Source of the DNA: a virus
Lineage: Duplodnaviria; Caudoviricetes
Virus record (IMG/VR): IMGVR_UViG_2508501067_000008
Location: 91 to 64,090 of that record
Strand: one strand, 5' to 3'
Length of the DNA stretch: 64,000 nt
The stretch's first letter is position 1, and the number at the start of each line of letters is the position of its first letter. Below the pieces are notes generated by a model. That model was not told where the DNA came from. It saw only the letters and a list, made by a program, of their open reading frames with translations, and did no database searches. Positions 40,273-62,572 of this stretch are shown in pieces. The translations under genes and the position numbers were made by a program.

Positions 40273-42046
40273 ATGCCAGCTACTACACAAGCCTACGAGG
40301 CCACCAACAAGGGCGGCATAACGATCACCATTCTGGCGCTCAACCCGGAGGACGCCGCGCAAATTGCGGTCGAACCCGGCCACGTCCGCCGCCTGGGCAA
40401 CGTGAAGGTCAGGCCGAAACCTCCCCGGATCGACGGCCATCAGCACCCGTCCCTCGAAGCCCTGATGTCCGCGGGCGCACGGGGCGGCGTGAACTGGTGT
40501 TTCTGGCGACTGACCCTGTCCGAAATCATCGCGGCCAAAATGTCCGGGCAAAAACCAGACCTCCACGAAGGCTGGGAGCTTACATCCCCGGCAAAACCGC
40601 TATGAGCTTACTCTCCGCGTTCAAATCAACACTCGCCTGCGCGTTCATCGAAAAACAACTAACCAAGCTCGGTGAACCCTATGGCGTCCTCGGTGTTCGG
40701 CATCTCGCCATCAAGCCCGATTTCCGGTTTGCTGTTGCCGTGGTTCTGGACGGGGACGCAGACCTCCGTGTCTGGGGTCGGATTCGGTTCGATAACGACA
40801 GCCGGGCCTTCATCGAGACGCTGAACACTGACCGTGCGTGGCTCACTCTTCTTGCCAACTCTCTACCGTTTCTCCGAAACCCTCTGCCCCTGACACCGGA
40901 ACAGACCGCGCAGCTCCGGGGCCTTTGGCCGTGACCGATGCTGACATCACACTCCTTCGTCGTACCGTACAGGCCAGTTCGCCCGAAACCGGCGAGATCT
41001 GCTGGAGTCCGGATGAATACACCGCTCGTAAAGTTATCGGTATTGGTCGTCCCCTGACGACCGGCGGACTGTTCGAGGATGAACCCGAACCGAGCGAGTG
41101 CGCCTTTTTCGCCAACGGTGAATATGTAGCTCTCTACAATACCGAACTCGACGACTTCGCCGTGGTGAAACGCTTTTCGTTATGCCACTGCCAACCGACA
41201 AGGTTCTAGTCTCACGCACATTCCGTCAATGCGCCACCGACCCTTCCGGCGTCGTTTACCATACCAACATGTTCGCTCAAGGAAGCGGACTGTGGGTGTT
41301 TGAAATCGTTCGCGGATCGGAATCGCTCGAATGTATTCTGGCCGCGCCATCCGTGCCAGAAGCACAAGAGGCGCTGAAGCGTGGTCCCGTGTTCCACGGG
41401 ATGCCAAGCCTTGCGGTAGGGTCGAAGAAATTCCGGTGGTCCTACGATCAGTTCGGAGACTGCGTCTTCAGCATGCTGAAATCGGGGGCATACCGCGACG
41501 CTGGCGCCAAGGAGTGGGGAACTGACGACGTATTTCTGGACTGCATAGACGAAATACGCCGCATCATCGGGATTCCAATAACCGTAGAGAAAGCGCGTAT
41601 CGTTCCTTCGAATACTTTCGGCAAATCGGTTCGTAAGCTGATTCTGTGAATCCGCCGCGCAAGATCATACTTCCCGTCCACACGGACGGGCAAAACAAAC
41701 CATGAGCACCATCGACACGTCAAAGTGGGTTGTCGTCGACACCCCGCTCCCGCCGCGTCGCAGCGCCGCCGTGCAGGCCGCTTACGACTTCTTCTGGAAG
41801 CTCGAACTCGGCAAATCTGCCCTCATCCCCAAGGACGAGGCCGGAACGGCACGCAACGCTGCGGCTCAACTGAAACGCGACTCCGAAGGCAACTCCGAAG
41901 TCCGCTTCCGCGACGAGGGCGACGGCGCTCACATCCGCGCAACCAAAATCAAGGACTACACGCCCGAACAAAAGGCGTCCCTTGAGGCCGGCCAACCGTT
42001 GCCCGAATCCGAAACGTCGGAAGACGACGCCCCCGGATCGGAGTAG
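40273..42046 (+). CDS. Array of hypothetical genes (40273-40605, 40602-40934, 40931-41209, 41182-41649, 41646-41705, 41702-42046)
   Basis: Translationally coupled ORFs; 41646-41705 is a 19-aa micro-ORF. Confidence 0.6.
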
Positions 42047-42069
42047 CGACAGCGCGGATACGACAACCC

Positions 42070-42105
42070 GGCCCGCACCCGTCCTTGGGTGCGGGCCTTC
42101 TATTT
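42070..42105 (+). terminator. Intrinsic terminator
   Basis: GGCCCGCACCC-GTCCTT-GGGTGCGGGCC then TTCTATTT. Confidence 0.65.
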
Positions 42106-42113
42106 CCCAAAAC

Positions 42114-42875
42114 ATGGCGAACACTAAAATCTCACCCGAGGTTGCTGACGTACTGCGTCGGTCGACCATCACCGATAACGTACTCGTCCTTCCTCCCGGG
42201 CAGCTACCACGACCGCTTTACGAGGCCGTCGACAAAATACTCAAAAATGCCGGAGGCAAATGGAAGCGCGGAACCGGTCACGTATTTACGTCCGACCCGA
42301 GACCGAAACTTGAACGGGCTCTCGAAACCGGCATCGGCGTCGACGAGAAAAAGCAACTCCAGGCCTTCTATACACCGGCGAAGGTCGCAGCTCGTGTTGT
42401 CGGGTTAGCGGAGGTATACGGACTGACCGTACTGGAACCGAGTTGCGGTGAGGGCGCCCTCATAAAAGAATGCGTGTCGCAAGGCGCACACTACGTTCAT
42501 GGCGTTGAGATAAGCCCGGGTGCAGGGCGCATCGCTGTCGAAAACCTCTACGATGCCGACAACGTCTGCATCACCGGACGGGATTTCTTCGATTGCGGAC
42601 TCTCCGAACTTGGCCTGTACGACCGAATCGTCATGAACCCACCCTTCGCGAAGGGGCAGGATCTGAAGCATATCGAATACGCTCTCAGGTTCCTCAAACC
42701 TGGTGGCCGGCTGGTATCGATCGTTTCACCGATGACTCCGGAGAAACCGAAATTCTGGCGGCGGATGAGCGCACTCGGCGTCCACTGCTACGATCCCGTC
42801 CGCCTCGAGCCAGACCTGTTCAAGGAATCCGGCACACGTATCGCAACCGCAATCGTCATCATCGACAAACTGTGA
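42114..42875 (+). CDS. N6-adenine DNA methyltransferase
   Basis: FYTP, VLEPSCGEG SAM-binding motif, VMNPPF catalytic motif. Confidence 0.88.
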   Translation: MANTKISPEVADVLRRSTITDNVLVLPPGQLPRPLYEAVDKILKNAGGKWKRGTGHVFTSDPRPKLERALETGIGVDEKKQLQAFYTPAKVAARVVGLAEVYGLTVLEPSCGEGALIKECVSQGAHYVHGVEISPGAGRIAVENLYDADNVCITGRDFFDCGLSELGLYDRIVMNPPFAKGQDLKHIEYALRFLKPGGRLVSIVSPMTPEKPKFWRRMSALGVHCYDPVRLEPDLFKESGTRIATAIVIIDKL

Positions 42876-43423
42876 AACCGAAACCCGACCGCGGCCCATG
42901 GATTCAAACCTTCACCGGCCGTCAGTTCTTCCCACTCGACCCGGACCCGCTCGAAATCGACATCGAGGACATTGCCCATGCGCTTGCCCTCCAATGCCGG
43001 TTCGGCGGTCACTCGAGGGCCTTCTACTCTGTCGCACAGCACAGCGTGTTTGTCGCGGACATGTGCCCGCCACACCTGAAGCTGACAGGGTTGCTGCATG
43101 ACGCAACGGAGGCGTACCTCATCGACCTGCCGCGCCCGATAAAACAGGCTATCCCGGAGTACCGGCGGATCGAAGACAAACTGGCTGAGGTCATCGCCAA
43201 GCGATTCACTCCGCATCCGACTTGTCCGATTCAGTTCCATCACCCATTCATCAAGGTCGCGGACAAAATCGCCCTCGCAACCGAGGCCCGCGATCTGCTT
43301 GGCAAGCCGCCTGCCCCGTGGGGTGACGGCGTCGATCCTTCACCCGTCCATATTGAACCGTGGGACTCCCTGAAATCGGAATACGAATTTCTCCGGAGAT
43401 TCCGCGAATGCACCAAACCGTGA
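42872..43423 (+). CDS. HD-domain phosphohydrolase (YfbR-like)
   Basis: IEDIAHALALQCRFGGH, YSVAQHS, LLHDATEAY. Confidence 0.88.
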   Translation: MKPKPDRGPWIQTFTGRQFFPLDPDPLEIDIEDIAHALALQCRFGGHSRAFYSVAQHSVFVADMCPPHLKLTGLLHDATEAYLIDLPRPIKQAIPEYRRIEDKLAEVIAKRFTPHPTCPIQFHHPFIKVADKIALATEARDLLGKPPAPWGDGVDPSPVHIEPWDSLKSEYEFLRRFRECTKP

Positions 43424-43427
43424 ATCC

Positions 43428-43826
43428 ATGCACGTTCCAACCGAGGATAAACCGCGGGTGCTGTACCGAGGTATAATCGCCGGGATCGGGTACCACTACT
43501 TCCGTTTTCGTCCCGACCGGCTACAAAGGTACGACATTGTCGCACTCGTCCCCGAGCCGGCGAACCCCCACGACCGGAACGCAATCCGCGTCGACACCCC
43601 GGACGGCAAAAAGATCGGGTACATTCCAAGGAACCACACCCGTCCAATTCACGAGGCACTCAAAAACAGATCGCGAATAGGAACAGAAATAAAAGTTGTC
43701 TGCAAAGCGCCGGGCCTCGGCGGAACGCCAAACTCCTACCTGATTGAAATCGTGGTACGGACAATTCCGCACCCGAAACCGGCAGCCAGAAAATTCGGCA
43801 AAGCTCCGCGAAAAATTCTGCTCTGA
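43428..43826 (+). CDS. HIRAN-domain protein
   Basis: LVPEPANPHDRNAIRV...IGYIPR. Confidence 0.82.
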   Translation: MHVPTEDKPRVLYRGIIAGIGYHYFRFRPDRLQRYDIVALVPEPANPHDRNAIRVDTPDGKKIGYIPRNHTRPIHEALKNRSRIGTEIKVVCKAPGLGGTPNSYLIEIVVRTIPHPKPAARKFGKAPRKILL

Positions 43827-43849
43827 GCCAGAAATCGAATCTGAAAATC

Positions 43850-44068
43850 ATGCCAAAATTTATCCACCTTAGGGACAACTTGGTCATCAATGCGGACAGC
43901 ATCTCAGCGATCGTTTTCCGCGAATCGGGGCCTTGTCTCGAAATATGCCAATCTCCGAACGATGAACGGTATCTGTTTCAGGACAAGGTTCGGGCTCTGC
44001 GTTTTCTGGAGGAACTCCAGCTCGATACGCTGAGGTTTCTGGTCGCAGGGAAGTGGCAGGTCAGATGA
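43850..44068 (+). CDS. Hypothetical protein
   Basis: 72-aa ORF, plausible start. Confidence 0.5.
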   Translation: MPKFIHLRDNLVINADSISAIVFRESGPCLEICQSPNDERYLFQDKVRALRFLEELQLDTLRFLVAGKWQVR

Positions 44069-44279
44069 GAATGCCTTTTTGAGACCTGTCACAGAGGGGG
44101 AACGGGGTGGAGACCCTGCGAAGGAATTTTTGCTAAAAAGAGATTCCTTACCCTATGGTGGAAGCTATTTTACAAACGTAAATTTTATAAAGCATTAAAC
44201 ATGCCAATTTCTATAAGTCGTTGATAATGCACACTCAACTACCAACAACTTACAACGCTTTCTGTAACAAATCCGCACT

Positions 44280-44567
44280 ATGAACCTGAAATATATTCAG
44301 ACGAAGCACTATCAATGGCTTGAGTCAGTGGGCTGGGCGCACGCTTCGACCCCGCTCGAACAGGTTGCGCTCATCGCCTCCGAGATCGGCGAAGCCGCCA
44401 ACGAGCTTCGCGGACCGGAACCGACAGCCAGGCTCGGCTCCGAACTGGCCGACATCATCCTTCGCACGCTCGGCCTCGCGGAACGCCTCGGCATCGACAT
44501 GGAGACAGAGATCAAGGCCAAAATGGACGCAAATGCCAAACGCGGCACGAAAGGACGCCTGAAATGA
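44280..44567 (+). CDS. MazG-like nucleotide pyrophosphohydrolase
   Basis: SEIGEAANE...SELADII...KMDANAKR. Confidence 0.82.
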   Translation: MNLKYIQTKHYQWLESVGWAHASTPLEQVALIASEIGEAANELRGPEPTARLGSELADIILRTLGLAERLGIDMETEIKAKMDANAKRGTKGRLK

Positions 44568-47500
44568 TCCTCAATCCGGAGTCGCATTTCGGGCTCAAAG
44601 AGACAATCGCCCTCCTCCTCTCGCTGGAAAAACCAAAAAGACGCTCGGTTATCGTTCGAGAAATCGGCTCGGAGTTGGCCTCGCGGCTAGAACGGGCAAA
44701 TTCGCTCGGAAATTCGCTCGCAGACAAATCAAGAAAAGCCTGCGAAGGGTGGTGCAACGGAGATTTTCACCTCGCCGGAACCGAGTACGCAAAGGCCAAC
44801 TTGGCGCTGGTTATCTCCCAACATCCTGTTTACGTGGACCATAACGATGCGATCCTGCTCCCGCCTCCGTCAGTAATGGAATTGATACGTTTACGCTTAC
44901 ACCTTTTACGCTAGGTTTCGCCTCCTCTCCTTTCCCTATATATATTATATTTTATTTACTCCGAAGAACAAGAAACTAGGCGTAAAAGGCGTAAAGGTGT
45001 AAAATGCACCTGAATCTCAATAATCCACTGTGCTGACCTCCGTAGAACTTCACCACCTTTCCGTCCAAGCCCGCAACTGGCTCGAGAATCAATCCCTCGT
45101 GCCCTCGTCCTGGGGCAAACTCCCTGATTTCCCCGAGTCCGCCGACCTGCCGGTCTGGCTCGTCCCCGACGACCCGACCCTGCTTCTGGTTCAGCCCGAT
45201 CCTGAACTGCGTGCCCGTACCTACCGTCGGCGCTACGACCCCGACGAGAAGTCAGCCTGGGTCTTCGTACCCGGAACGGAAAACAGGGTCTGGCTCGTCA
45301 ACGCAAAGCGCCTTCCTGCCCCGTCCAACTGACCGACAGCATCCCTCCCTTCCCGCGTACAGCCCTGGCCTGCCCGGCCAGGGCTTTTTGCATCCCGCAC
45401 ATGAAGACCCGCGACACTTCCTGGAAACCTTGTCGATGGCCTTACAACGACTCGGAATTCTTTGCCTCCTGGCAATGCTACGAGCGAAAGTTTGGTCGAG
45501 GCAGGGTTATCCTTCACCCCTCCGTCTTCGGGAAAGGTCAGTGGGCTTACGTCGCATCGTTTGGCGCGAACAGCCCAAAATCGTTCTCAGGCGGGTTCCC
45601 CGACGGCTTTACCCTTGAACAGGCCAAGGCCAAAATTCAGCAAATATTTTTAGCCGGGAAATTTTGATGTCAGACCATGCCCACGATTCTTGAGGCTTTG
45701 CGCCGCACCGGCCGCACCACGCGCATGCTGGATGCGGCCGTACAGGCTTGCACCGATCCGCCGTTCCCGACTTTTCGGGTGCCCACGGTCTACGTGGGTA
45801 GCCATGAGGAGAAGCGCCGGATTTCTCGGCTGCTTGAGCAGGCAGGGGTGCCTTCCTTGAACGTTCGTGAAGGCGTCCGCGTCGCCGAATGGGGCCGGGC
45901 GGACAACGAATTGACCCGTGACCTGACCGAAGCGATGGGAAACTCGCCGAGCATGTTCTTTGACCATTACGCTCTCGAACGGCGTTTTGGTCCGGTTTTC
46001 GATCTCTACCACCGTTACGATCCGCCGGCGGACTCGCTTCTGCCGAAGGATACCCTCCTCAAGCCATGCCCACGCCCCGAACGCCCGGTTCGAAAACTGT
46101 TCCTGCCGTAAGGGAGAAGCCCTCCAGACTGGACCGTCAGGTACATGGTGCGGTGCGCCAGATTCTCTACAACGAGATCGGGTACGGTCCAGACAAGCTG
46201 CGGCGTTTCCTGTCACGCGCCATCGAGGCCGAAGTTCGGCGGAAAGTGGCCGGCGCCGGCAGTTCGATCACCCAGACGGTGGAAACCAGGGTTCGCAGTA
46301 CGCTCGACGGGCTATCCGCGGATCTCGAGAGATTCAAGGCCGAGTCGATCCGGACGCGGGATGAGGTCTGCGAGTATATCCGCACAATGGGCGAGGATGC
46401 CCGGGCGACTGCCGAGGCCCGCTTGACTCAGGCGGTTACCGCCACCAACATCGAACTCCTCGCCCGGGAAGCCGTGGAACGATACATCCTCGAGCATCAG
46501 GTCGATTTCAAGGCTCTGCGGGAGCGCATTCAGGCCGTTCTGGAGGAAACTGCCGCCCGGGAGATTAAGGCATTCCTCGACGCCAATTTCAGGATCGAGG
46601 TCAAGACCACACCCGGGCGCAAGATACTCCTGCCACCGTAATATTTTAAGGACTACACCATGACTAAACTGGACTGCCAGGTACACGGCGCCAGGTTAAC
46701 CAACGACCGTGTTGCCGCGATCAGGAGATCTCAAGCCCGGTGGGTGGAACTTGCCGAGGAGGCGGAACGATGGGCGTCTTTCGTCGAGGAACGCCGAGCG
46801 GCCGGCGTCGAGATGATGGACTCGCCGGACGTGCTCCGGAACCAGGCCGAGACCTATCGGCGCGTTGTCCGCGCCTACGCCCTCGAACTCGAGGTCGGCA
46901 AGGCGCACTGTGCATGCTGCCTCAAACCGTTCAGCGAGCGCCATTCCTCCGGCCTCTACCCCTAACACACCCGATTCTGTCGACCCGGATTCGTGTATCC
47001 GCGATAACAACACCAAATACCATGACCGAAGAACAAGAAGACCAATTCCGCCTTCGCAAAGCCGACGACTTCGTCACCCACTGCCGGGAATCCGAGAACC
47101 AGGCCCGGCTTGAACTTGCCCGTGCCGTCGAGCTGACCCGGCGGGCGAAGGAGAAATACGAGACGCTCTTCATGGAATGCGAACGCCGGGCGCGACTCCG
47201 CAGCAGAACCTTGAATGCCCAACTCCGATGAAATCACCCGAATACTGGTCTGAGAAAATCTACCGCGAATGCCCATCCCACGTGATGGGAAGGTCATTGG
47301 TGAAACCTGAATTCATCGCCTCGATACAGGCCGACGCGAGGGTTGATCTGGAAAGAGTGTTGGAGGAAATCCGCGGCCTCATGGCGAGCGCCTACGGCAT
47401 ATCGTCTTTCCACTCTCAAGTTCGAAGGATAGCAGAGGCCGCTTTGGCTAAAAGTCACGAATGACGCCGCCGACGCAATATTCGAGGAGGTCCGACAGAT

Positions 47501-48461: not shown

Positions 48462-48489
48462 GGCGTCTGGTTCAACCCTTTTGTATCCT

Positions 48490-48924: not shown

Positions 48925-48968
48925 AACGAAACCGGCGATTTCGTGCATCGCATTGTTCGGAGAACCTC

Positions 48969-49268
48969 ATGCAAACAACAACAGATCAAGTCAGACAAAT
49001 CCTGATGAATGAACTCGGATTGAGCCGCGAAAGCGTGCGCCAGTTGGTCGAGCAGATCGTTACCGAGACGGTAAATAAGCACATGACCACTTTGGAAACG
49101 AGCGGGGCGCTTGCCCGCATCACTGAGGACGCTTTCCACCGCCTGTATCGCGATCCCAAGACTGGCTACGCTAATTTCAAGAGCCTCGTCCAGGACGCAG
49201 CCATGACCGCAGCCAAGGTATTCGTGGGAGAAAACATCCGTATTTCTCCGGTGACGCCGAAGAGTTAA
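48969..49268 (+). CDS. Hypothetical helical protein
   Basis: 99-aa ORF, phage-like codon usage. Confidence 0.55.
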   Translation: MQTTTDQVRQILMNELGLSRESVRQLVEQIVTETVNKHMTTLETSGALARITEDAFHRLYRDPKTGYANFKSLVQDAAMTAAKVFVGENIRISPVTPKS

Positions 49269-49308
49269 TTGCCAAAACGCGAGGCGGAACGCCTGCTTGG
49301 ACGGAGGC

Positions 49309-51856: not shown

Positions 51857-52470
51857 TGCCCACCCTCCCGCAAATGAGCAAACTGACTCCGCAACAGATC
51901 GATCGCGCCCTCAACATCGGCGAAAAAGTCGTCGACCTCGCCGTCGACGTATGGCGCACCCGCAAGAAGCGGGTTCAGGAGAAACCCGTCCGTAATAAAT
52001 CGCAACAATTTCTGAGAAAATGAAAACCCTCGTTCGCGCAACATTGTCTAAAGCTGCCGAGACCCTCGTCGGGCATGGAGGAGTTCGCAACCGGCATTTC
52101 AGCCGGGCCGCAGGTATTACCGGGAAACGCGCCCGTAAATTTCTAAAACAGGCGCGGCGTACTCTCCGGGAACGTACACCTGCCGTCGGCACCCTCAAGG
52201 AAGCAAAGTCATGATTGCAGCCCTCTCCTCCGAGGAAATCCTCCTGATCAAGTACGCCATCGGTGCGATCCTTCCGGTGATCGTCCTGCTGGCGATCGTA
52301 CGTAACTGATGAAGTCGTTGCGGTACAATGCAGATTTGTTCGCACTCCGGGACGACAAGGCGCTCGCCCGTGCAAACGAATGCGCCCTTCGCGTCGGCAC
52401 CGAGGAGGCCCGCCGGCTCCTGGCCGCTATCCGCACCCGTCACCGCATCCGCGATCTGAGTCTTCGCTAA
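51856..52470 (+). CDS. Four very small coupled genes (51856-52023, 52020-52214, 52211-52309 TM peptide, 52309-52470)
   Basis: Hand translation; overlapping stop/start codons. Confidence 0.5.
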
Positions 52471-52472
52471 CC

Positions 52473-54703
52473 ATGTCAGTAAGTCTTTATGATTGGCAGG
52501 AGCCTTCCGCCCTGACGCTACAGCAATCGCTACTCAGCCACAACGTGGCGGCGGACGGTAGCGAAATGGGCTGCCACGCCCGAGGGGCGTTAATCTTGAT
52601 GTATGACGGGGCACTGAAACGGGTGGAAGATGTGACTGTCGGGGACGCTCTCATGGGGTGGGACAATACGCCCCGATACGTAGTGTCCCTCGCACGTGGC
52701 AGGTCGGCCATGGCCCGCATTTGCCCTACGAAGGGTGAACCGTTCGTGGTCAATTGTGACCATATGTTGACGTTGGTCCAGACCAACACATCCCTGTGCC
52801 GTTCGATGCCCAGGCACAACGGCCGGATCGTGGATGTTTCGGTCAAGGACTATCTGACGTGGAGTCGGGAGTGGAAAACGCTGCATCTGCTCTTCCGGGT
52901 AGGAGTGGAGCTTCCGGAACAAGACCTCCCCGTAGACCCGTATTTTTTGGGGGTTCTGTTGGGAGACGGGTCATTCCGGGGCTATTACGCTCAGGTTTCA
53001 AAACCTGACCCTGAACTCGAGGAGTACCTTCAGATGCTCGGGATTCCGTTTACCCGGACGCAGACGGGAAATCGTTGCCCCAATTTCTATTTGAAATCCC
53101 CTCCCCTGCATCACGCATTGGCTCATCTCGGACTGTGGGGAAAGCTGTCCGGGGAGCGGTTCATCCCGGACGTGTACCGCCGAAGTTCGCGGCATCAACG
53201 ACTGGCTCTTCTGGCCGGACTTCTGGATACTGATGGGCATCTCACGCATACGGGCGGGTACGATTACGTTTCACAGTCCAAAGACCTTGCAACTGATGCG
53301 GCGTTTGTCGCCCGCAGTCTGGGACTAGCCGCGTACGTCCGACCCTGCTGGAAACGGGCCCAGACGGGGAATGGAGGTATCTATTACCGCGTTTCAATTT
53401 CCGGGGATTGTGCCGTAATCCCTTGCCGCATACCTCGGAAGAAAGCGTTACCTCGAGCCCAGAAAAAATCGGTGCTTCGGACTAGCTTCACTGTGGAGTC
53501 GTTGCCTGAAGACGATTTTTTCGGGTTTTCTCTTACGGGCGATGGCAGGTATCTGATGGGAGACTTTACCGTAACCCATAATACTGGCAAGACGATCAAG
53601 GCGTGTGTCGTCGCCAAGCGCCTCGGTCGCCCGCTTTTCGTGGCATGCCCCAAGTCGGTTATCCCCGACTGGCTGGATTGGGCTGAACGGGTTGGCGTAC
53701 CCTGCATCGCGGCCAATTATGACCGTATCCGCGCAGGCAAGACGCCGTACGGAGAATGGCAAACCAAGGGGAAGCTGTTCCAGTGGACGCTGCCGCCGGA
53801 CACGCTTCTTGTTTTCGATGAAGCCCACCGTCTTGGCGGAATCGACACGCAGCAGAGCCGTCTTCTGGTAGCGGCGAAGAATCAGGGGTACACACACCTG
53901 CTCCTCTCCGGCACCCTTATTGAAAATCCTCTCAAGTGTCGGGCTATCGGGTACTCGCTTGGACAGCACACCCTGCTCAATTTCTGGCAATGGGCGAAAC
54001 GACATGGAGTTCGTGAAGGCGTATTCGGGATGGAGTTCCGTCCGAAGAACGAGACCCCTGCCCAGGTCATGGAACGGATTCGTGCCGCCCTTGGCGACCG
54101 GTTTACCCGCATCCGCAAAGCCGACGTGCCCGGCTTCCCCGTAAAGCAGGTGATTCCGGTATACGTCCAGACCGACGATATGCCGGAGGACGAGACCCTC
54201 GACGGAGGGCGCTACGGGTACGCAGCCCGCATGCACGTGGAATTGCTGAAGGTGCCTGGCCTCGTCGACCGGACCCGCGATCTTGTCGATCAGGGGCAAA
54301 GCGTGGCCGTTTTTGTCAACTACCTCGATACGCTGAACGCCCTCCTCAAGGAGCTTCCCGACGCGGCGGTCATACGGGGTGGTCAGAGCTCCACCGAACG
54401 CAGCCGGAACATCGACATGTTCCAGACCAACGCCCGGCACGTCGTGCTGGTCATGATGCAGGCAGGCGGCACCGGGGTGAGTCTCCACGACCTGCACGGG
54501 CGACCGCGCTCCTCCATTATCTGCCCGGGCAACTCGGCGCTCGATTTCCTGCAAGCCGTCGACCGCATTCACCGCGCCGGGGCCAGATCGCCCGCCACCG
54601 TCTACGTAGCTCTTGCGAGCGGCGTGCCTGTCGAGCGTCGAATCCGTCACCGGATCGAGAGCAAACTGACGAACTTGTCGGCCTTGAATGACGCCGACTT
54701 TGA
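52473..54703 (+). CDS. SF2 (SNF2-like) helicase containing an intein; true 3' end probably near 54703
   Basis: G|TGKT, VFDEAH, LSGT, QAVDRIHRAG; as given the frame reads through to 56285. Confidence 0.85.
52572..53582 (+). mobile_element. Intein (337 aa) with LAGLIDADG homing endonuclease
   Basis: Starts CHARG, ends VTHN followed by T; FLGVLLGDGS and LLAGLLDTDG motifs; inserted in Walker A. Confidence 0.92.
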
Positions 54704-54726
54704 GAACTTTCAACCCACAACAAAAA

Positions 54727-55077
54727 ATGCCGGAACCTGCTGTAATAAATCGAAACAAATTGCAACCGCTGTCGCTGCTGGACCTGTATCTGAAAGTTCA
54801 GGAACTTCTTCGCCAGAAGAGCCCTGCGTATCCGACCAATGTCCTGTCGGTGGAGCTGGATACGCATACGGACCCGGAGGGGCGGGCGCAGGTGACGGTG
54901 GAGACCCTGACGGAGCACGAGCTTCAGGCGGACATTGCTGTTCTGGTGGACCCGGCGCCGAATCCGCCGTCCAATCCACAACCGGCGCCATCGCCGGTTG
55001 TGGCTCCCAAACAGCGTCAGCCACGGGTTTCGAGCATTCGGGCGGCAGTGGAGAAGGGAGGGAACCAGACATGGTAA
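54727..55077 (+). CDS. Hypothetical protein nested in alternative frame of the long ORF
   Basis: Protein-like LSLLDLYLKVQELL...VSVELD; A-rich leader; stop overlaps nuclease ATG. Confidence 0.6.
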   Translation: MPEPAVINRNKLQPLSLLDLYLKVQELLRQKSPAYPTNVLSVELDTHTDPEGRAQVTVETLTEHELQADIAVLVDPAPNPPSNPQPAPSPVVAPKQRQPRVSSIRAAVEKGGNQTW

Positions 55078-56285
55078 GGATTCTCGTCCCCCCTCCCCCG
55101 TCCGAACCGATCCCGGCCCAGCCTGCGGAAGTGCCGGGGGCGACCGGCAACCACAAGGTGCGCACCCATGCCCGGTGCAGTCCGTCCAAACTCAAAAACC
55201 TCGAGATTTGCCCCAGCTACGAAGGGGACGACGAAGCACCTGTCCATCCCGTCACCCTTCGCGGCACGGCGATGCACGAAGCCCTGGAGACCGGTGACAA
55301 CAGTCACCTCCTCGACGACGAGGAATTGCGCCTCGTCACCATGTGTCGCGAGTTTCTTGCCGAGGAAGTCGCCGCCGCCGAGACCGTCATCGACGAACAG
55401 CACCTCAAGACCCACGACAAGGATGTTCAGGGTTTTGTGGACAAGCTCCTCATCTTCCCGAAAAACCCGACGACCGGGCGACGGAAGGCGAAAATCCGGG
55501 ACTTCAAGATGGGCTGGAACGCGGTCGACACTCCGGATCAGAACCCGCAGGCGATCGCCTATACTCTGGCGGTCTTCCTCCAGTGGGAAGACGTTGACGA
55601 GGTTGATTTCGCCTTCCTGATCCCGCGTCTCGACCTGGTCCTTCAGCATACGTTCACCCGGGCGGATGTGCCGGCCCTCAGACTCCGCGTCAGCCTGATT
55701 GCCGACCGTGTGCGCAAGCTCGCGGGCAAGGAGTTCAATCCCGTCAACGAGAATTGCCTGTACTGCGGTCGCAAAGCCACCTGCCGCCCATGTATCGACA
55801 AGTCCCTGACGATCGCACGTGGGTATGACGATGGAAGCAAACTCCCCCTCCCTGCCACGCTTGATCCCTCCCAGCTAACCGATCCCCAGCAGATTGCCTA
55901 CGGCCTCAATGCGGCCTCCGTGCTGGAGAGCTGGATTGAACAGATGCGCCGTCATGCGCTGCGCTTCCGTCAGGAGATCGGCGTCGAAGTCCCCGGCTAT
56001 GATTACATCGAACGGCAGGCGAAACGTGAGATCGCCAATCCCGTCGGTGCCTGGGAAATCCTGAACAAGGAGTTCGGAGTTACCCAGGAGGAATACCTCT
56101 CTGCCTGCAAAGCGTCCATCACCCAGCTTGAGAAAGTGGTCAAGGACCACGCTCCGCACGGCGCGAAGGACAAAGCCGCCGAACGCTTCACCGACCGGCT
56201 TCTCGACGAGGGTTTCCTCACCCGGGGCGCGTCGTTTCACGTGCTGCAACGCAGCAAGAAAAAGAAGGCCCTGAAAGCGGCCTGA
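55071..56285 (+). CDS. Cas4/AddB-like PD-(D/E)XK exonuclease with Fe-S cysteines
   Basis: SPSK..CP, GTAMHE, GFVD, DFKMG, QAIAY, CLYC...C. Confidence 0.85.
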   Translation: MVRILVPPPPSEPIPAQPAEVPGATGNHKVRTHARCSPSKLKNLEICPSYEGDDEAPVHPVTLRGTAMHEALETGDNSHLLDDEELRLVTMCREFLAEEVAAAETVIDEQHLKTHDKDVQGFVDKLLIFPKNPTTGRRKAKIRDFKMGWNAVDTPDQNPQAIAYTLAVFLQWEDVDEVDFAFLIPRLDLVLQHTFTRADVPALRLRVSLIADRVRKLAGKEFNPVNENCLYCGRKATCRPCIDKSLTIARGYDDGSKLPLPATLDPSQLTDPQQIAYGLNAASVLESWIEQMRRHALRFRQEIGVEVPGYDYIERQAKREIANPVGAWEILNKEFGVTQEEYLSACKASITQLEKVVKDHAPHGAKDKAAERFTDRLLDEGFLTRGASFHVLQRSKKKKALKAA

Positions 56286-56340
56286 TCCCTTTCCGATTCG
56301 TCGGATTCCTAAACAAATAACCGTAACAAAACGCAATAAT

Positions 56341-57186
56341 ATGCCAACTGTCATCTCGTTCAAGAAAACACCCGTCGCCGCTCCCGCCACTGCTGCCGCT
56401 GCGACTTCTGCACCGGCCGCGACTTCCGCGGCTGTGACTCCTGCTCCTGTTCAGGTGGTCGCTGCCGTTCCGGCGGCAGCCCAGCCTGTTCAGGCGACCC
56501 CGACAACGCCCCCGGCGACCACGGCCGTTGCTCCGGCCACCGAAACCGCTCTTGCCACTGAAGACCAGTACAACGGCCTCGGTGGATTCGAGGGCGAGTT
56601 CGATTCCTCGGAGATGCGCACCCCGTATCTCTCCATCGTCGGGAAGACGTCGAAGCTTTTCGATGAATTTCCCCAGTTCCTTGGGCAGTTCGTCTACAAC
56701 AAGTCGGTCGCCCTCGGCGAGGAAATCCGTGTCGTCTTCGTCCGGGCTTCCAAGGTGTGGGTCGAGGATTTGCCCTTTGGGTCGGAAGTTGTCCCGCAGA
56801 CGTTCAAGCGCATGGAAGATGCTCGCGCCGCCGGATTCCTCCCCACCCAGCTCAAGGAGCGCGCCGACCTCGACCTCCTCATCGAACTGGATCTTGATAC
56901 CGAGGGTGTTGACGAAATCGCGGACCTCATCGTCGGCACCAAGGCGTATCTGCTCGCCCGCTACACTGTCCAGTCGACGGCGTACGGAAAGACAGTCCCG
57001 GTTCTGATGGCCGACACCCGCGGTTTCCTCAAAGGCAACCTGCTGAACGGGTTCTACAAGCTCTCTACCCTGAAGATCGAAGGGAAGAAGGGCACGTACT
57101 ACACGCCCCAGCTGAAGACCGACGGTCCGACCTCGCCGGAGCTCCGCACCGAGATCGTGAACCGCTGCGCACCTGTCGCCGTTTGA
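56341..57186 (+). CDS. Putative single-stranded DNA-binding protein
   Basis: Ala/Pro/Thr-rich N-terminus, acidic core; position between nuclease and polymerase. Confidence 0.55.
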   Translation: MPTVISFKKTPVAAPATAAAATSAPAATSAAVTPAPVQVVAAVPAAAQPVQATPTTPPATTAVAPATETALATEDQYNGLGGFEGEFDSSEMRTPYLSIVGKTSKLFDEFPQFLGQFVYNKSVALGEEIRVVFVRASKVWVEDLPFGSEVVPQTFKRMEDARAAGFLPTQLKERADLDLLIELDLDTEGVDEIADLIVGTKAYLLARYTVQSTAYGKTVPVLMADTRGFLKGNLLNGFYKLSTLKIEGKKGTYYTPQLKTDGPTSPELRTEIVNRCAPVAV

Positions 57187-57201
57187 CGCGACCGGAATTC
57201 C

Positions 57202-57305
57202 GGAACGCGGGCGTGCCGAACTAAGGAGCGCCCTTCGGGAACTCATAGGCGTTTGTGGCGCCGGATACCGGCAATGCCCAACCCGACCGCCAGCGTCCGC
57301 GTTCC
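57202..57305 (+). ncRNA. Structured intergenic RNA element upstream of polA
   Basis: 12-bp closing stem GGAACGCGGGCG/CGTCCGCGTTCC, inner TGCCG/CGGCA stem, cUUCGg tetraloop. Confidence 0.5.
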
Positions 57306-57343
57306 GTTTCCCCACCCATCCTGCAACCCGCCAATCATCGTCA

Positions 57344-59251
57344 ATGGTAGCATTCACCACACCCAACTTTCCGCCGCCGGTCGAGACCTACGCGGTCGAT
57401 TTTGAGACCACTTATCAGAAGAGGGTTCGGGATATTGCGATCCTCGGCACCGCCAGGTATGTCTCGCACCCGGAGACCAAGCTCTATCTTGTATCCATCC
57501 ATGGCCTACGCCCTGACGGGTCTGTCCTGTCTTATTCCGGGCCGATCGAGCAAGCCCCGTGGCAGGAGATCGACGGCAGACACTGGGTGAGCCATAATGC
57601 GGCGTTTGACGCGACCGTCTTCATGGAAGCCGTCAGGCGCGGACAGATACCCGGCGGCGTCGCCCCCGTCGAATGGGATTGCACGGCAAATCTCGCCGTC
57701 TTCCTCGGCTCCGGCCGCAGTCTCGCTGCTGCTTGCGAGATGCTTCTTGGTGTCACGGTCGACAAGACTGTGCGCGACGAGATGAACGGCAAGACATGGG
57801 AGACCATGACGCCGGAGTTTCGTCAGGCCGCCATCGAGTATGCGGCAAAGGACGCTCTACGTTGCTGGGAGCTCTGGAATTTCTGGAGTGCCAAGTGGCC
57901 TGCGCAGGAGGTTGCCCTCAGTCGTCATACGATGGCGATGGCGCTGCGTGGCGTCGCTATCGACCTCAATTACGTGGAGGACGGTCTCCAGAAACTGAAG
58001 CAGGCCCTGTGGGCGTGCGAGCAACGCATTCCCTGGGTCGGGGAACTCGACGCCAAGGGCAAGGAAATCACTGTCGGCAGCCGGAAGGCACTTGCTGCTG
58101 CCTGTGTTGCTGCCGGCATCCCTCCTCCGGCCAGCACGGCCGACAAAAACGAGATATTCGATCGCTGGGCTGAGCAGTTCTCCGATCGGGCACCGTTCGT
58201 GCAGGCAGTAAAGGATCATCGCAGCATCAGTCGCACCATTGACCTCCTTCAGAAATTTCGCGATCGCACGATGGACGACGGCCGCATGCCCTACGGGTTG
58301 AAATACGGTGGTGCCCATACCCTGCGATGGAGCGGCGACACCGGACTTAACGTTCACAATTTCCCCCGCGACCCGCTGTGTTTCGATACCCAGTGGCAGA
58401 AATACAAGTACGAGGAGGGTACGGAGTATCACGCCCGGATTGATCCACGCGGGTGCATCTATCCTGCGCCCGGGAAGAAGTTCGTCATTGCCGATCTCAA
58501 GCAGATCGAGGCCCGCGTCACGCTCTGGTACGCCGAGGACTGGAACCAGCTTGAGCTCCTCCGGAACGGCATGGATGTGTACGAGGCGCATGCCCGTGCC
58601 ACGATGGGTTACATCCGGCCGGAGCCACTGAAGGACTGGGTAAAGACTCCCGGCCTTTCGTTCGCGGAAGCCAACATGCGCCAGATCGCAAAGGCGCGTG
58701 TCCTGGGCCTCGGCTTCGGGATGGGAGCGCAACGCCTCATCGATTACGCGAAGACGACTATCGGCATTGTTCTGACCCCTGCGCAGGCGAAGGCCATTGT
58801 CGACGGGTTCCGTCGGGCAAATCCGGGAGTTGTCCGGTTCTGGAACCGGCTTCAGGTGGCGATGGAACGGCATGCGGCGAGCCCGCAACGTCACGAGCCT
58901 TTCGGTATCGAACTGCCAAGCTGGCGCAGTCTGGAGTATTACGATGTAAACACAGCTGTCGGCCTTCAGGCTCGCGACGAAATGGGCGGACGCATGACGC
59001 ACTGGTTTGGCGGGAAGCTCGCTGAAAACGTCGTGCAGGCAACCGCCCGGGATATTCTGGGCGAAGCCATCCTGCGGATCGAAGCTGCCGGACATCCGGT
59101 TGTCATGCACGTGCATGACGAGGTGCTTGCCGAGGTCGACCTTCACGTGCCCTGCGAGGAGATCGAAGCCTTGATGACAGTTACACCCGAGTGGGCGCCC
59201 GGCCTGCCCGTGGGCAGCACGGTCGAGGAAGCTGACCGCTATTTCAAGTAA
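57344..59251 (+). CDS. polA: DNA polymerase family A with 3'-5' exonuclease
   Basis: DFET, HNAAFD, YAAKDA exo motifs; DLKQIEAR, RQIAKARVLGLGFG, HVHDE polymerase motifs. Confidence 0.95.
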   Translation: MVAFTTPNFPPPVETYAVDFETTYQKRVRDIAILGTARYVSHPETKLYLVSIHGLRPDGSVLSYSGPIEQAPWQEIDGRHWVSHNAAFDATVFMEAVRRGQIPGGVAPVEWDCTANLAVFLGSGRSLAAACEMLLGVTVDKTVRDEMNGKTWETMTPEFRQAAIEYAAKDALRCWELWNFWSAKWPAQEVALSRHTMAMALRGVAIDLNYVEDGLQKLKQALWACEQRIPWVGELDAKGKEITVGSRKALAAACVAAGIPPPASTADKNEIFDRWAEQFSDRAPFVQAVKDHRSISRTIDLLQKFRDRTMDDGRMPYGLKYGGAHTLRWSGDTGLNVHNFPRDPLCFDTQWQKYKYEEGTEYHARIDPRGCIYPAPGKKFVIADLKQIEARVTLWYAEDWNQLELLRNGMDVYEAHARATMGYIRPEPLKDWVKTPGLSFAEANMRQIAKARVLGLGFGMGAQRLIDYAKTTIGIVLTPAQAKAIVDGFRRANPGVVRFWNRLQVAMERHAASPQRHEPFGIELPSWRSLEYYDVNTAVGLQARDEMGGRMTHWFGGKLAENVVQATARDILGEAILRIEAAGHPVVMHVHDEVLAEVDLHVPCEEIEALMTVTPEWAPGLPVGSTVEEADRYFK

Positions 59252-59271
59252 CCGCAATAAAACGCAATAGA

Positions 59272-59547
59272 ATGAATATCGACCTGTTTATCAGAGTACG
59301 TGATCTTAAGACAAATACCTCACGGCTTTTTCATCGACGAGCTGAGTATGCGTACCGGATCGACCGCGGAGATTTGGTTTCCCTGTACCCTTCGGGATTG
59401 TTTGTGCGGGTATCGCAGGTCAGCCACGATTGCGACGCCCGCACGGTATCCGTAGAGTTGGAAGACAGGTACTTTGAAAACTCGGGAAGAGCCTCCCGGA
59501 ATGCAGATGACCTGCTCGCCAACGGTTGGGAGGAAGCGAAAGGGTGA
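59272..59547 (+). CDS. Hypothetical protein
   Basis: 91 aa, preceded by GCAATAA tandem motif. Confidence 0.6.
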   Translation: MNIDLFIRVRDLKTNTSRLFHRRAEYAYRIDRGDLVSLYPSGLFVRVSQVSHDCDARTVSVELEDRYFENSGRASRNADDLLANGWEEAKG

Positions 59548-59906
59548 AGTTCATCCTTCACCGATTCGTTGCGGCAACCTTTGCCCTGCTGCTGGTCACC
59601 GCCCTTGCTGACCCGACGCCGCTTGCGGGTAAAGCGTCGTGGTACGGCGAGGAGCACGCCGGCCGTCCGATGGCGAATGGCAAACCGTTCGATCCGGGCG
59701 CCCTCACTTGTGCGTCATGGCATTTTCCTCTCGGGATCCGGATAGAGGTTCGCCACGCCGGCCGGAAGGTAACGGTCGTCGTGACCGATCGCGGCCCCGG
59801 CCGTCGGTTCCCCGATCGTGTTGTCGACCTCTCACGCGCCGCATTTGCCCGCCTCGCCGATCCCGACGTCGGACTGATCGAAGTGACAGTCGCCCCTCTT
59901 CCCTAG
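59544..59906 (+). CDS. rlpA: RlpA-like lytic transglycosylase (DPBB fold) with signal peptide
   Basis: GKASWYG, ANG..FDPGALT, VTDRGP, VDLSRAAF; hydrophobic N-terminus; GTG 59544. Confidence 0.85.
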   Translation: MKFILHRFVAATFALLLVTALADPTPLAGKASWYGEEHAGRPMANGKPFDPGALTCASWHFPLGIRIEVRHAGRKVTVVVTDRGPGRRFPDRVVDLSRAAFARLADPDVGLIEVTVAPLP

Positions 59907-59915
59907 CGTCTTTCC

Positions 59916-62069
59916 ATGTCGTTTTTCACTCTTCCCAACCTCTCCTCTCATTCGGTCCAGCCGGTAGATGCTCCGTGGAGCATCGAATCGGTTCGACCGG
60001 CGTTCGCGACCAAGGACGAGTTCCGTCTCTGGTGCAACGCACCCACTACGAGCCATGCTTTTCTCAGTGCCGTGGAAGGCGTTCAGCCGGGGCTTCGGGT
60101 CAGCGAGCTCAACCCTCCTGCCCGGATTCATGGCCTGATTCTCGACTACGACGCGGTACCCGGCGGACCGCCAGAGCAGCTTCTGTTGAACAACGCCCCG
60201 GACGGACTGCGACCTGCCTGGGTCAGCCGGACCTTCAGCGGGCATTGCCGGGTTCTCTATGTATTCGAGACTGCAATACCCCTGTTCAACAGCTTTGACC
60301 TTACCCGGGAGTTCCTCAAGCGGGCGGCCCGAGAGCTGAAGCTCCGGAAACTGTTGCCCGGTTTCGAGCACGAAACCCTGCTGGACCCGGCCAAGCATTA
60401 CGAGCTTGGTGACAACTGGACTCCCGTCGGTGACGGTTCCGCGATCATTCCGGCCAATGAGCTGATGTCGTGGGTGACAGAGGCCAGCCGCAAGCACAAG
60501 TGGGAGAAGGAAGGCACTGCCATCCCGCTTGATCTCGTTCGCGAAGAGGCCGCGAAACGATTCCCGGGCAAATGGCCGGGTGGATGGGAACTCTTCGATG
60601 TCGGCGCGCGCGGCCCGCGTTTCTGGGATGATTCGGCCTCCGACCCGACTGCCACCATTGTCCGCGAGACCGGCGTCCAGTTTTTCAGCGATGGCGGCGG
60701 CTGGATGTCGTGGGAGGCGATCTTTGGCACCGAATTCGTGCGCCGCTGGTCTGCCGACCGGAAGGGCAATGCGATCAAGGATCTCTGGTTTGACGGCAAA
60801 TACTACTGGCGGAAGGACGCCTACGGACTCTGGCATCCGGCGACCAAGGAGGACATCCGGCTCGAGCTGTTTGTCGACTACCGGCTTTCCAACAAATCAT
60901 CCCGGGCCGGTGTTCCGACCGAGATCGACGAAGCTCTGCGCGACCTGCAACGCACCAAGATGGTCCGGAAGGCCATGCCTTTCCTGTACCGACCCGACGG
61001 GCTGCACCCTTACAACGGTCAACGCTACCTGAACACCAGCACAGTTCGACCGATTCCGCCCGTCGATGCAGCGATCGACTGGGGCGAAGGCTTTCCCTGG
61101 CTCGGCCAGTTTCTGTACACCCTGTTCGAGCCCGACGACCAGCTCGACTACTTCATGGCGTGGGTGAAGCATTTTTACATGGGGGCATACATGCAGGACC
61201 CCCGTCGCGGCCTTGCCTTGTTTATCGCCGGACCGCCCGGCGCCGGCAAGACGGTGCTCAACAAGGCGATCCTCGGGCAACTGTTCGGGGGCCGGCAGGA
61301 TGCCGGCAAGTATCTGATCGGCAAGGACCAGTTCAATGATGCGCTTTTCGGTGCCGCCGTCTGGAATGTCGACGACGAGATTGATACCGGCAATCCGCAC
61401 CAGCGCAGCGTGTTCACGCAGATGGTGAAGCGTATCGTCGCCAACGACAGTTTCGTGTACCGTGCCATGTACACCGGCGGTGAGGACATGGAATGGCTGG
61501 GGCGGCCGATCATCACGATGAACGACGATCCCGAGTCGTTGCAGATACTGCCCGAGGTTGAGCGCAACATCCTCGACAAGATCATGCTTCTGCGGACGAA
61601 GCAGCCGGACGTCGAGTTCTGGCCCAGTGACGCGGAGATCGCCGCCGAGCTTCCCTACTTTGCGGCTTTCCTGCGCGACTGGACACCTCCGGCGCACACG
61701 CTCCCTCCGCTCAACCGGCGCCGGTTCGGTGTTATCCCCTATCACCACGCTGACCTTCTCCAGTCGGCGGTGTCCACCAACGCCACCAGCTCTTTTGAGG
61801 AGCTGGTGTCCCTCTGGCGCGAGGAGTGGTTTGGCCCGGGTGGCCCGGGGGAAAGTGCCCAGCAATGGGATGGAACCCCGACAGCTCTCCATCAGGCGAT
61901 CAACCGCAATGACAGCCTGCGTGCGATTCTGGATACAAATTTCAGGAGCACGACGGCGATCGGAATTCACCTCAACAAGCTCCTCAGCCGCGGTACTCCC
62001 TACCTGCAACGTCTCGGTCATCGCAGGTACGCGATCCTGCGCCCCGGCGCGACAGTTGTTGCTGCCTGA
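59916..62069 (+). CDS. Primase-helicase (PrimPol-like N-terminus plus P-loop helicase)
   Basis: ILDYD, TFSGHCRV, GPPGAGKT, VWNVDDE, ITMND. Confidence 0.82.
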   Translation: MSFFTLPNLSSHSVQPVDAPWSIESVRPAFATKDEFRLWCNAPTTSHAFLSAVEGVQPGLRVSELNPPARIHGLILDYDAVPGGPPEQLLLNNAPDGLRPAWVSRTFSGHCRVLYVFETAIPLFNSFDLTREFLKRAARELKLRKLLPGFEHETLLDPAKHYELGDNWTPVGDGSAIIPANELMSWVTEASRKHKWEKEGTAIPLDLVREEAAKRFPGKWPGGWELFDVGARGPRFWDDSASDPTATIVRETGVQFFSDGGGWMSWEAIFGTEFVRRWSADRKGNAIKDLWFDGKYYWRKDAYGLWHPATKEDIRLELFVDYRLSNKSSRAGVPTEIDEALRDLQRTKMVRKAMPFLYRPDGLHPYNGQRYLNTSTVRPIPPVDAAIDWGEGFPWLGQFLYTLFEPDDQLDYFMAWVKHFYMGAYMQDPRRGLALFIAGPPGAGKTVLNKAILGQLFGGRQDAGKYLIGKDQFNDALFGAAVWNVDDEIDTGNPHQRSVFTQMVKRIVANDSFVYRAMYTGGEDMEWLGRPIITMNDDPESLQILPEVERNILDKIMLLRTKQPDVEFWPSDAEIAAELPYFAAFLRDWTPPAHTLPPLNRRRFGVIPYHHADLLQSAVSTNATSSFEELVSLWREEWFGPGGPGESAQQWDGTPTALHQAINRNDSLRAILDTNFRSTTAIGIHLNKLLSRGTPYLQRLGHRRYAILRPGATVVAA

Positions 62070-62071
62070 TT

Positions 62072-62572
62072 ATGGCGAACGGCCATCAAAACACATTGCG
62101 CTGCCGCCACTGCGGAGGCCCGGTCGAGTTGATTCGGGACCAGCATCCGGAAGACAGGACCGAGCAGTTCAGCCTCCGGCATAGGCCATGGAGGTGCGTG
62201 CAGGCGGGAGGTCGTGTGACACAGTCACCGCATCTCGGGTACGCTTTCAGACTGGATGATTTCTATCTCCGGGCTGCCGATGTCGGCAGGGTAATCAATG
62301 AGTTTGTGTCCCGTGGCATGTCCGATCTGGAAGTAAAGTGCGCGGACCTGACAGAAGTTCTGAATGATCCCTTCCCGCTGATCGGCACTTCAACCGGTAC
62401 GGGACCTCTCCTTGGTTTTGACGAAGCCGAAACCATCGTGACCACGACAGGTACAGGAGCTTTTCACAAGATCACCAATCCGAACCTGGGCATACTCCGG
62501 GACGAGGTGCCGGAAAAGAAGCCAGTTCCGGCCCGTACATTCGGGTCGGCCCCCAGAAAAATCCTGCTATGA
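62072..62572 (+). CDS. Hypothetical Cys-containing protein
   Basis: CRHCGG; C-terminal FGSAPRKILL. Confidence 0.6.
   Translation: MANGHQNTLRCRHCGGPVELIRDQHPEDRTEQFSLRHRPWRCVQAGGRVTQSPHLGYAFRLDDFYLRAADVGRVINEFVSRGMSDLEVKCADLTEVLNDPFPLIGTSTGTGPLLGFDEAETIVTTTGTGAFHKITNPNLGILRDEVPEKKPVPARTFGSAPRKILL

Follow-up and report, generated by a model that had tools for sequence, protein, structure and literature searches.

A shared C-terminal peptide on unrelated proteins of a verrucomicrobial prophage, a probable docking motif with a Ycf46-type AAA+ module as its candidate reader

The 64,000-nucleotide stretch of DNA analysed here (the window) comprises bases 91-64090 of the 64,090-bp virus record IMGVR_UViG_2508501067_000008 (Duplodnaviria; Caudoviricetes), in which five otherwise unrelated proteins end in nearly the same short peptide, exemplified in this client set by PAARKFGKAPRKILL. 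The sharing of this tail was confirmed to be real and far beyond chance, and the tail is probably a docking motif for some single reader. Versions of it also occur on two proteins of a conserved phage module, a Ycf46-type AAA+ ATPase (here AAA2) and a DUF3150-family protein, which look like the old, family-wide carriers of the motif. From these comparisons, we give roughly even chances to the proposal that the tail plugs its clients into the phage's own module, made up of AAA2, the DUF3150-family protein, a DUF1257-like protein, a DUF2997 protein and a small protein of 83 amino acids (aa), p83.

Results

All five C-termini quoted in the first-pass annotation of this DNA are present at the ends of plus-strand genes (endings are written up to the stop codon; h, hydrophobic residue; x, any residue). 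P1 (155 aa, no known domain; 41182-41649) ends TFGKSVRKLIL, with the tail FGKSVRKLIL encoded at 41617-41646. A standalone HIRAN protein (132 aa; 43428-43826), whose label was borne out by Pfam (E 9e-14), ends KFGKAPRKILL (tail FGKAPRKILL at 43794-43823). P3 (144 aa, phrog_5437; 45677-46111) and the helical P4 (191 aa; 46066-46641) end RPVRKLFLP and TPGRKILLPP respectively, and P5 (166 aa; 62072-62572), which has an N-terminal CxxC and lies directly downstream of the primase gene, ends TFGSAPRKILL (tail FGSAPRKILL at 62540-62569). Four carriers have the longer form F-G-x-x-x-R-K-h-h-h, and the linkers on which the tails sit are rich in Pro, Ala and Lys. The description of these proteins as early derives only from their position and strand.

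The frequency of the motif within the window is far above that expected by chance. Translation of the 64 kb in all six frames yields only eight matches to the pattern RK[ILVFM][ILVFM][LIVMF]: six at 0-14 residues from the stops of real genes on the plus strand, one in the interior of a further gene, and one in an orphan remnant. R[RK]hhh was present within the last eight residues of five of the 83 proteins, against an expectation of 0.056 (Poisson P 4e-9), and none of 20,000 shuffles reached five, a strong enrichment over shuffled termini. The codons differ between copies, with only 6-21 of the last 30 nt identical in pairwise comparisons of the tail-coding DNA. Hence the tail is not a DNA repeat, and its conservation lies at the protein level, as had been proposed at first pass.

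This conservation extends to related phages. Three relatives were compared: G001, a complete 66-kb IMG/VR phage that has most genes in common with the window at 40-74% identity; L022, a 17.8-kb piece of a Logan contig; and L023, a JGI contig. The G001 orthologue of P1 ends FGRAVRKLIL, and that of the DUF3150-family protein contains FGKSERKVIV close to its end. Three more tailed ORFs (open reading frames) of G001 are without counterpart in the window, and two of these lie directly after the primase, in the same position as P5 but unrelated to it (FGKDVRRVLV and FGKDTRRITA). The L022 piece encodes eight tailed ORFs, including orthologues of the HIRAN protein (42% identity, ending FGKIARRILLT), P4 (37%, KPGRKIFLPDA) and P3; the P3 orthologues, at 32-33% identity, end RPPRKLLL in L022 and FGAEPRRILP in G001. 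Tails in L023 end RRILR and RRILKPTS. The seven homologues of P1 found in databases, at 51-59% identity, all end FGxxxR[RK][LI][LIM]x, following linkers that vary in length and sequence, and F146, G147 and R151 are invariant in the family. The P1 family is found within IMG/VR in G001 only, was not detected in the genome contigs searched or in 401 sampled Verrucomicrobiota genomes, and had no usable match for P1 in the ESM Atlas. The orthologues in related phages are therefore not devoid of the tail, the outcome that would have spoken against a shared function: at 30-55% identity they keep it, while the preceding proline-rich linker varies. Across the window and its three relatives the carriers make up at least 13 families, with bodies that are unrelated by all-against-all BLAST.

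The orphan remnant may be read in the light of this comparison. It encodes NPPRKIILP (41658-41672, plus strand) right after the P1 stop, in a frame other than that of P1 and without an ORF body, within a region (41650-41701) that reads ADSVNPPRKIILPVHTDGQNKP up to a stop. As the gene after P1 is a tailed ORF in G001, L022 and L023, the remnant is probably the leftover of a deleted client gene. Two further observations concern the arrangement and variety of the tails. As annotated, P4 begins inside P3, and the 46 nt common to both (46066-46111) include the tail-coding end of P3, such that the P3 tail and the first 15 P4 codons occupy the same DNA in two frames; the overlap of these genes in L022 is only 4 nt. 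A small acidic protein (39022-39333) ends LLVEWGFGEIVKRIG, and its L022 homologue (6215-6526) ends TAWGFGDLVRRCGEGVI; the FG-x3-[KR]R part of these endings is tail-like and without the aliphatic end, and may be a degenerate or different variant.

The properties of the tail are those of a short linear motif: the core spans 5-10 residues, has a predicted local distance difference test score (pLDDT) of ~40 in two carriers modelled with AlphaFold2, is conserved after variable linkers, and recurs in unrelated families. This disorder in monomer models is as expected of a peptide that binds in trans. The docking function suggested by the first-pass annotation fits these traits, and among the hubs it listed, the comparative data presented below favour a phage AAA+ protein. 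Another reading would dispense with a specific reader, the basic-hydrophobic end sending carriers to a membrane surface, nucleic acid or a condensate, or making them self-stick. The composition of two basic and three aliphatic residues would allow this, and since the ATPase is itself a carrier, the sharing could be explained by co-localisation alone. However, the P1 and DUF3150 families have F, G and R without exception and at a fixed spacing, the frequent presence of Pro within the motif speaks against an amphipathic helix, and three aliphatics are too few for a membrane anchor; we regard this reading as very improbable.

The gene content of the tail-positive phages bears on the identity of the reader. 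All tail-positive contigs carry the set of genes for the DUF3150, DUF1257-like, DUF2997, p83 and AAA2 proteins. Three other phages, G002, G005 and G006, have only the helicase/PolA/primase module in common with the window, and are without AAA2 and without tails. The latter observation is difficult to reconcile with the tail recruiting replication or repair accessory proteins to a part of the replisome, such as the sliding clamp, PolA or primase-helicase. Such recruitment would suit the location of the carriers among replication genes, and the presence among them of the HIRAN protein and of ORFs directly after the primase. Yet the oldest carriers are the AAA+ ATPase and the DUF3150-family protein, rather than replication proteins, and no clamp gene was found among the phage proteins searched. 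Furthermore, no tail has a Gln at the position expected of a beta-clamp motif (QL[SD]LF or QxxLxxF), the core instead being R-[RK]-h-h-h, which is equally unlike PIP boxes. Hence a replisome hub seems a poor candidate, with little probability attached to it.

AAA2 (517 aa; 36757-38310, plus strand) is central to the module, and has a tail of its own (KPVRKITAIGKN, encoded at 38272-38307). It matches the Pfam families AAA (5.5e-24) and AAA_lid_3 (5e-8), and the NCBIfam models of Cdc48, FtsH and PAN, and the D2 domains of Cdc48/p97 are its nearest solved sequences. Given that its AlphaFold2 model (pLDDT 83) aligns over ~540 columns to the D1-D2 tandem of Rix7, Cdc48, NVL and p97, AAA2 is, on the model, a Cdc48-like double-tier protein, in which the first tier, a D1-like N-terminal half, is degenerate and D2 is predicted to be active. 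The AAA and AAA_lid_3 domains, the Cdc48/Rix7-like fold, and the DUF2997 and DUF1257-like genes upstream together identify it as Ycf46-type. Its C-terminus is conserved as KPxR[KR]I..[IV]G, and the last 16 residues are disordered in the monomer model (pLDDT of the tail 40-46), which, when checked for docking of the tail in cis, revealed no pocket.

Both AAA+ proteins of the window fall in the classic unfoldase clade, a point in favour of the tail being a degron for the timed destruction of early proteins, as the first-pass annotation proposed, either by a host protease or by AAA2 together with one. ClpXP, FtsH and Tsp are known to recognise C-terminal degrons that have apolar ends. It is awkward for this reading, however, that the ATPase and its conserved partner would, as carriers of the motif, be targets of their own system, and that the module has no protease gene. 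Purifying selection also keeps the tail on at least 13 families. We therefore think destruction an improbable role for the tail.

The conserved partner is the DUF3150-family protein (301 aa; 32836-33741, plus strand), in which the motif FGASNRKVLV (33667-33696) is followed by 14 disordered residues; its version of the tail reads KFGASNRKVLVMPP plus 12 residues. The DUF3150 label holds at the level of the family: the window copy itself has no significant match to PF11348, but aligns with ten relatives, and four of these 11 members match PF11348, with E-values of up to 4e-26. In the C-terminal third of this alignment, only F278, G279 and R283 are invariant, in a family otherwise 13-56% identical, and the phage members end RFG-x-x-G-x-R-[RK]-h-x-h, often followed by a final AA. 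In the AlphaFold2 model (pLDDT 83) the protein forms a bundle of helices together with a small sheet, and the tail, which is disordered (pLDDT ~40), starts where the last helix ends, at residue 278. The fold matched only uncharacterised viral DUF3150 models, at template-modelling scores of 0.7-0.8, and had no match in the PDB; a sequence search of solved structures found nothing for either this or the DUF1257-like protein.

Three small proteins complete the module. The DUF1257-like protein (144 aa; 35082-35516, plus strand), a candidate reader, is 63-72% identical in the three related phages, and adjoins DUF2997 and AAA2 in phage and cellular loci. It had no match to the DUF1257 Pfam family at E 0.01, and is named DUF1257-like only, because the assignment depends on its MSH N-terminus, its size, and its position beside DUF2997 in all loci. 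An FGKGLTKLV sequence within it was considered as a tail and not counted, being a conserved internal segment rather than a C-terminal one. The DUF2997 protein (63 aa; 35695-35886, plus strand; PF11211, E 1.6e-12) is the other candidate reader; of the DUF2997 loci fetched from Verrucomicrobiota genomes, only one has no homologue of AAA2 close by. The third protein, p83 (36249-36500, plus strand), belongs to no known family, is conserved at 54-65% identity in the related phages, and sits between DUF2997 and AAA2 in many loci of phage type and in some cellular ones.

The history of the motif was traced through homologues of AAA2 gathered from IMG/VR, metagenome contigs, and DUF2997 loci in 14 of the 401 sampled Verrucomicrobiota genomes, yielding 106 loci that were scanned with profiles of four families. 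Across these loci, AAA2 proteins typically end [RK]-[RK]-h-x-h, with examples including GRKIAA, ARRIAA, LRKMVV, RRMEL, RKLEL, SKLEF and TRQLDL. The first-pass annotation described the endings of the ATPase and the DUF3150-like protein as weaker versions of the tail; both are present, but given their family-wide conservation they do not look like weak copies, and look instead like the originals, on older carriers. The tails of P1, the HIRAN protein and P5 (FG-x3-RK-hhh) appear to copy the DUF3150 form, and those of P3 and P4 (P-x-RK-hhh) look more like the ATPase form. The phage's own Ycf46-type module is favoured as the hub because its ATPase and DUF3150 proteins carry the ancestral form of the motif across ~100 loci.

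The expansion of the tail onto many clients is largely limited to the window's clade, in which 5-8 further early proteins per genome carry it. Extra carriers elsewhere are few: two in L128 (NGKRKLIL and YGKRRIIL), right upstream of AAA2, and others in L192 (LGSRRFVL) and L129 (ERKMDI). L128 (IMGVR_UViG_3300049432_000156) is a 77-kb phage contig with an AAA2 at 47% identity, the ORF of which ends AAVFL; the two L128 carriers follow an ORF ending KKMTL, as the three consecutive small ORFs at 2406-3469. In the Verrucomicrobiota loci L158, L168 and L169, where AAA2 ends GRKIAA or RRIAA, nearby ORFs end GRKAA, VKRAA, KRRRAA, RSRVAA and QQRRAA, which may represent a local [RK][RK]xAA variant of the tail, and of which some may reflect Ala-rich composition. 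The module also reaches actinophages with a different ending: in Mycobacterium phage Dylan (L171, cluster O), which has Ku, ParB and DnaN-like genes nearby, the endings are KVRVLDL for the AAA-ATPase gp95 and GYALDFEEVV for its DUF3150-like neighbour gp94. The likeness between these endings is faint, and they were rejected as a shared tail.

Two patterns across the loci connect the tail to the module. Firstly, the AAA2 and DUF3150 endings of one element resemble each other, as in L131 (RKLSI on both), L156 (RQLDL on AAA2 and RQLQL on DUF3150), L129 (RAIDA and RVMDV) and L124 (RKLAN and RKLAA). Over the four positions after R, the 25 distinct AAA2/DUF3150 pairs had 32 identities against 21.2 when shuffled, and 32 of 20,000 shuffles reached 32; that the test ignores relatedness and the K-to-R drift with G+C content counts against the module as reader. 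The choice of K or R after the invariant R was itself set aside as evidence of co-variation, because it follows G+C content. Secondly, the tail was compared with the presence of DUF2997 within 10 kb at the 48 AAA2 loci having at least 4 kb of sequence on both sides. Nearly all of the 32 loci with DUF2997 nearby keep a basic-aliphatic ending, and of the 16 without it, 14 are without the full motif and 11 without any basic-aliphatic ending, the latter being the looser definition applied on the tree. Loss of the tail and absence of DUF2997 coincide at several separate places in this tree: at L205 and at L217/L238/L242, both inside the RRMEL clade; at L215 and L198, beside L218; and in the L206 clade. 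This points weakly to the DUF1257/DUF2997 pair being the receptor of the ATPase tail, or being needed for its use. The disorder of the tail in the monomer model would be equally compatible with tails being bound in trans by a pocket of the ATPase ring.

Several further points weigh against the module as reader. An independent-pairs test of the association between the tail and DUF2997 was not significant (2-4 concordant and 0-1 discordant pairs, p 0.125-0.25). Module and clients are linked only in that they occur together in a small number of related genomes, which have many other genes, and a host lineage, in common as well. The window's AAA2 tail (RKITAIG) resembles the client tails (RKILL) less than the DUF3150 tail does. 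Finally, no shared tails were found within 20 kb on either side of the AAA2 homologue (32% identity) of Rhizobium phage L338C.

The same patterns can be set against docking on a conserved host hub, namely the ClpX N-domain, DnaK or RNA polymerase, by which carriers would be tethered to the machinery of the host or handed over to it. In favour of this, the phage is temperate and resides in its host, as its integrase and host flank attest. The SspB XB peptide LRVVK and the MuA ending RRKKAI dock on ClpX, and DnaK substrates have basic flanks and a Leu-rich core; the tail, a basic pair with aliphatics that sits on a flexible linker at or close to the C-terminus, may be likened to such ClpX-tethering peptides and DnaK cores. 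The composition fits that of ClpX C-motif 2 and the SspB XB peptide, yet 1-3 extra residues (P, PP, T, KPTS) or 14-25 residues trail the motif. With 1-25 residues following it in several carriers, the motif has no need of a free carboxylate at a set distance. The motif also varies between elements in step on the ATPase and the DUF3150-family protein (RQLxL, RKLSI, RxhDh, RRFxLAA), a pattern not to be expected if a conserved host pocket were the reader; beyond the window's clade, hardly any carriers other than module proteins occur; and the ATPase tail tends to vanish along with DUF2997. A host hub is therefore unlikely in our assessment, if the least unlikely of the alternatives to the module.

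The wider genomic context is that of an integrated phage. The window's DNA was found within a 6.2-Mb scaffold of NCBI assembly GCA_000243495.3, and three flanking proteins (NDK, MdoG and a hypothetical protein) are identical in every residue to their counterparts in Opitutaceae bacterium TAV1; hence the window is a prophage of this termite-gut verrucomicrobium. A megablast of 24 kb of the window against annotated phages found no match. Structural genes occupy the minus strand at ~950-24,300, and a plus-strand block at 24,900-62,900 encodes a DNA ligase, the two AAA+ ATPases, an SNF2-type helicase, a family A DNA polymerase and a DUF5906 primase. At the right end of the prophage (62846-64000 and beyond, in contig L038), a tyrosine integrase adjoins the host ndk and mdoG/mdoH-like genes. 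The gene for the SNF2-type helicase/DUF2800 nuclease (52380-56285, 1301 aa) holds an intein with Hint and LAGLIDADG domains at residues ~65-345; its G001 orthologue aligns only from residue 376 onwards, and hence seems to be intein-free. Two neighbours of the tailed module proteins complete this picture. The second classic-clade AAA+ ATPase (31151-32839, phrog_10440), which has a Pro/Ser/Thr-rich N-terminus, was ruled out as the common reader of the tails because it is missing from G001, L022 and L023. A 156-aa protein encoded inside the AAA+ module (34596-35066) matches phrog_335, annotated as a phosphatase, and a neighbouring earlier annotation calls the same protein a macrodomain.

Discussion

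The shared tail of this prophage would, in the arrangement proposed here, be a short linear docking peptide, consisting of an optional F-G-x-x-x followed by R-[RK]-h-x-h, borne on a disordered proline-rich linker. The ATPase, the DUF3150-family protein and, in this clade, 5-8 early proteins per genome would dock through R-[RK]-h-x-h on a single receptor pocket, for which the DUF1257/DUF2997 pair and the ATPase ring are the two candidate sites. Clients would thereby be tethered to the motor, either as cofactors that bring their own targets or ligands, or as substrates to be unfolded or remodelled. The HIRAN family binds DNA 3' ends, and a HIRAN client would fit the cofactor role.

This arrangement may be one instance of something broader. 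Ycf46-type modules of AAA2, DUF1257 and DUF2997 could be a widespread tag-directed system for handling proteins, in which the ATPase peptide [RK][RK]hxh serves as an address code that is also carried by DUF3150 and, here, by early proteins. This generalisation from comparative data is tentative, and to our minds somewhat more apt to fail than to hold. If it were correct, any protein that gained the peptide would be plugged into the motor, and the tail would offer the first mechanistic handle on the orphan ycf46 and ycf35 genes of cyanobacteria and plastids.

Members of the Ycf46, Ycf35 (DUF1257), DUF2997 and DUF3150 families occur widely in bacteria, plastids, plasmids and phages, and no mechanism is known for any of the four. 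This prophage provides a defined 10-residue peptide, several small soluble carriers including the HIRAN protein, and a five-gene set of candidate readers, and hence the targets of the Ycf46 machine, and how it chooses them, become addressable by pull-down or two-hybrid experiments. The tail would also exemplify clearly how a phage can place a single linear motif on many of its own proteins, something familiar from eukaryotic viruses but, to our knowledge, hardly documented in phages. A portable tag with its reader would, in addition, be a useful tool.

Docking tails shared between proteins are known in principle, and it is the present motif, its carriers, and their link to Ycf46 and DUF3150 that are absent from the literature searched. 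That search returned nothing on DUF3150, no mechanism or tail motif for Ycf46, DUF1257 or DUF2997, and no publication on the tail itself, in agreement with the first-pass statement that no described system matches it.

The closest parallel is with p97, which recruits many cofactors via short shared motifs. The cofactors of Cdc48/p97 bind through the SHP box (FxGxGxxh), VBM or VIM, or through the PUB and PUL domains, which bind the C-terminal tail of p97; hence in both cases unrelated proteins with shared linear motifs in disordered regions would gather around a Cdc48-like motor. The likeness extends to the ATPase itself, as the C-terminal tail of p97 is also a docking peptide, and AAA2 is closest in fold and sequence to Cdc48/p97. 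However, AAA2 lacks a p97-type N domain, the motif differs in sequence, and here the clients copy the ATPase's own C-terminal peptide, for which there is a candidate receptor only. The system described here is also bacterial and phage-borne, and includes DUF1257 and DUF2997. A similar logic applies to the HbYX motif of PAN, Rpt, Mpa and archaeal Cdc48, a C-terminal ATPase peptide also found on the unrelated Blm10/PA200 and Pba1/2, all docking into the same pockets of a partner ring. The phage motif differs in that it need not be at the extreme end, its module has no proteasome-like partner, and its carriers end LIL, ILL, FLP, LPP, IAA or MEL, with no penultimate Tyr.

Phages themselves offer precedents for unrelated proteins using one end peptide to reach one phage hub, in T4 gp43, gp33 and gp55 on the gp45 clamp, and in the acidic tails of T7 gp2.5 and gp4 on gp5. 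Those tails are acidic or aromatic and their hubs are replication proteins, whereas the tails described here are basic-aliphatic, and their oldest carriers are an unfoldase-type ATPase and a DUF3150-family protein. In composition, the tail is more similar to the XB peptide of SspB and the MuA ending, which are likewise basic and aliphatic C-terminal peptides on flexible linkers that tether to an AAA+ unfoldase. These, however, are read at the extreme C-terminus by the N-domain or pore of host ClpX, whereas the present motif varies with the tail of the phage ATPase, and may be trailed by up to 25 residues. Finally, the Ycf46, Ycf35 (DUF1257) and DUF2997 set of cyanobacteria and plastids has the same three families as neighbours, with an ATPase of the same Ycf46 type as AAA2, and it is to this set that the phage module adds DUF3150, p83 and the tailed clients.

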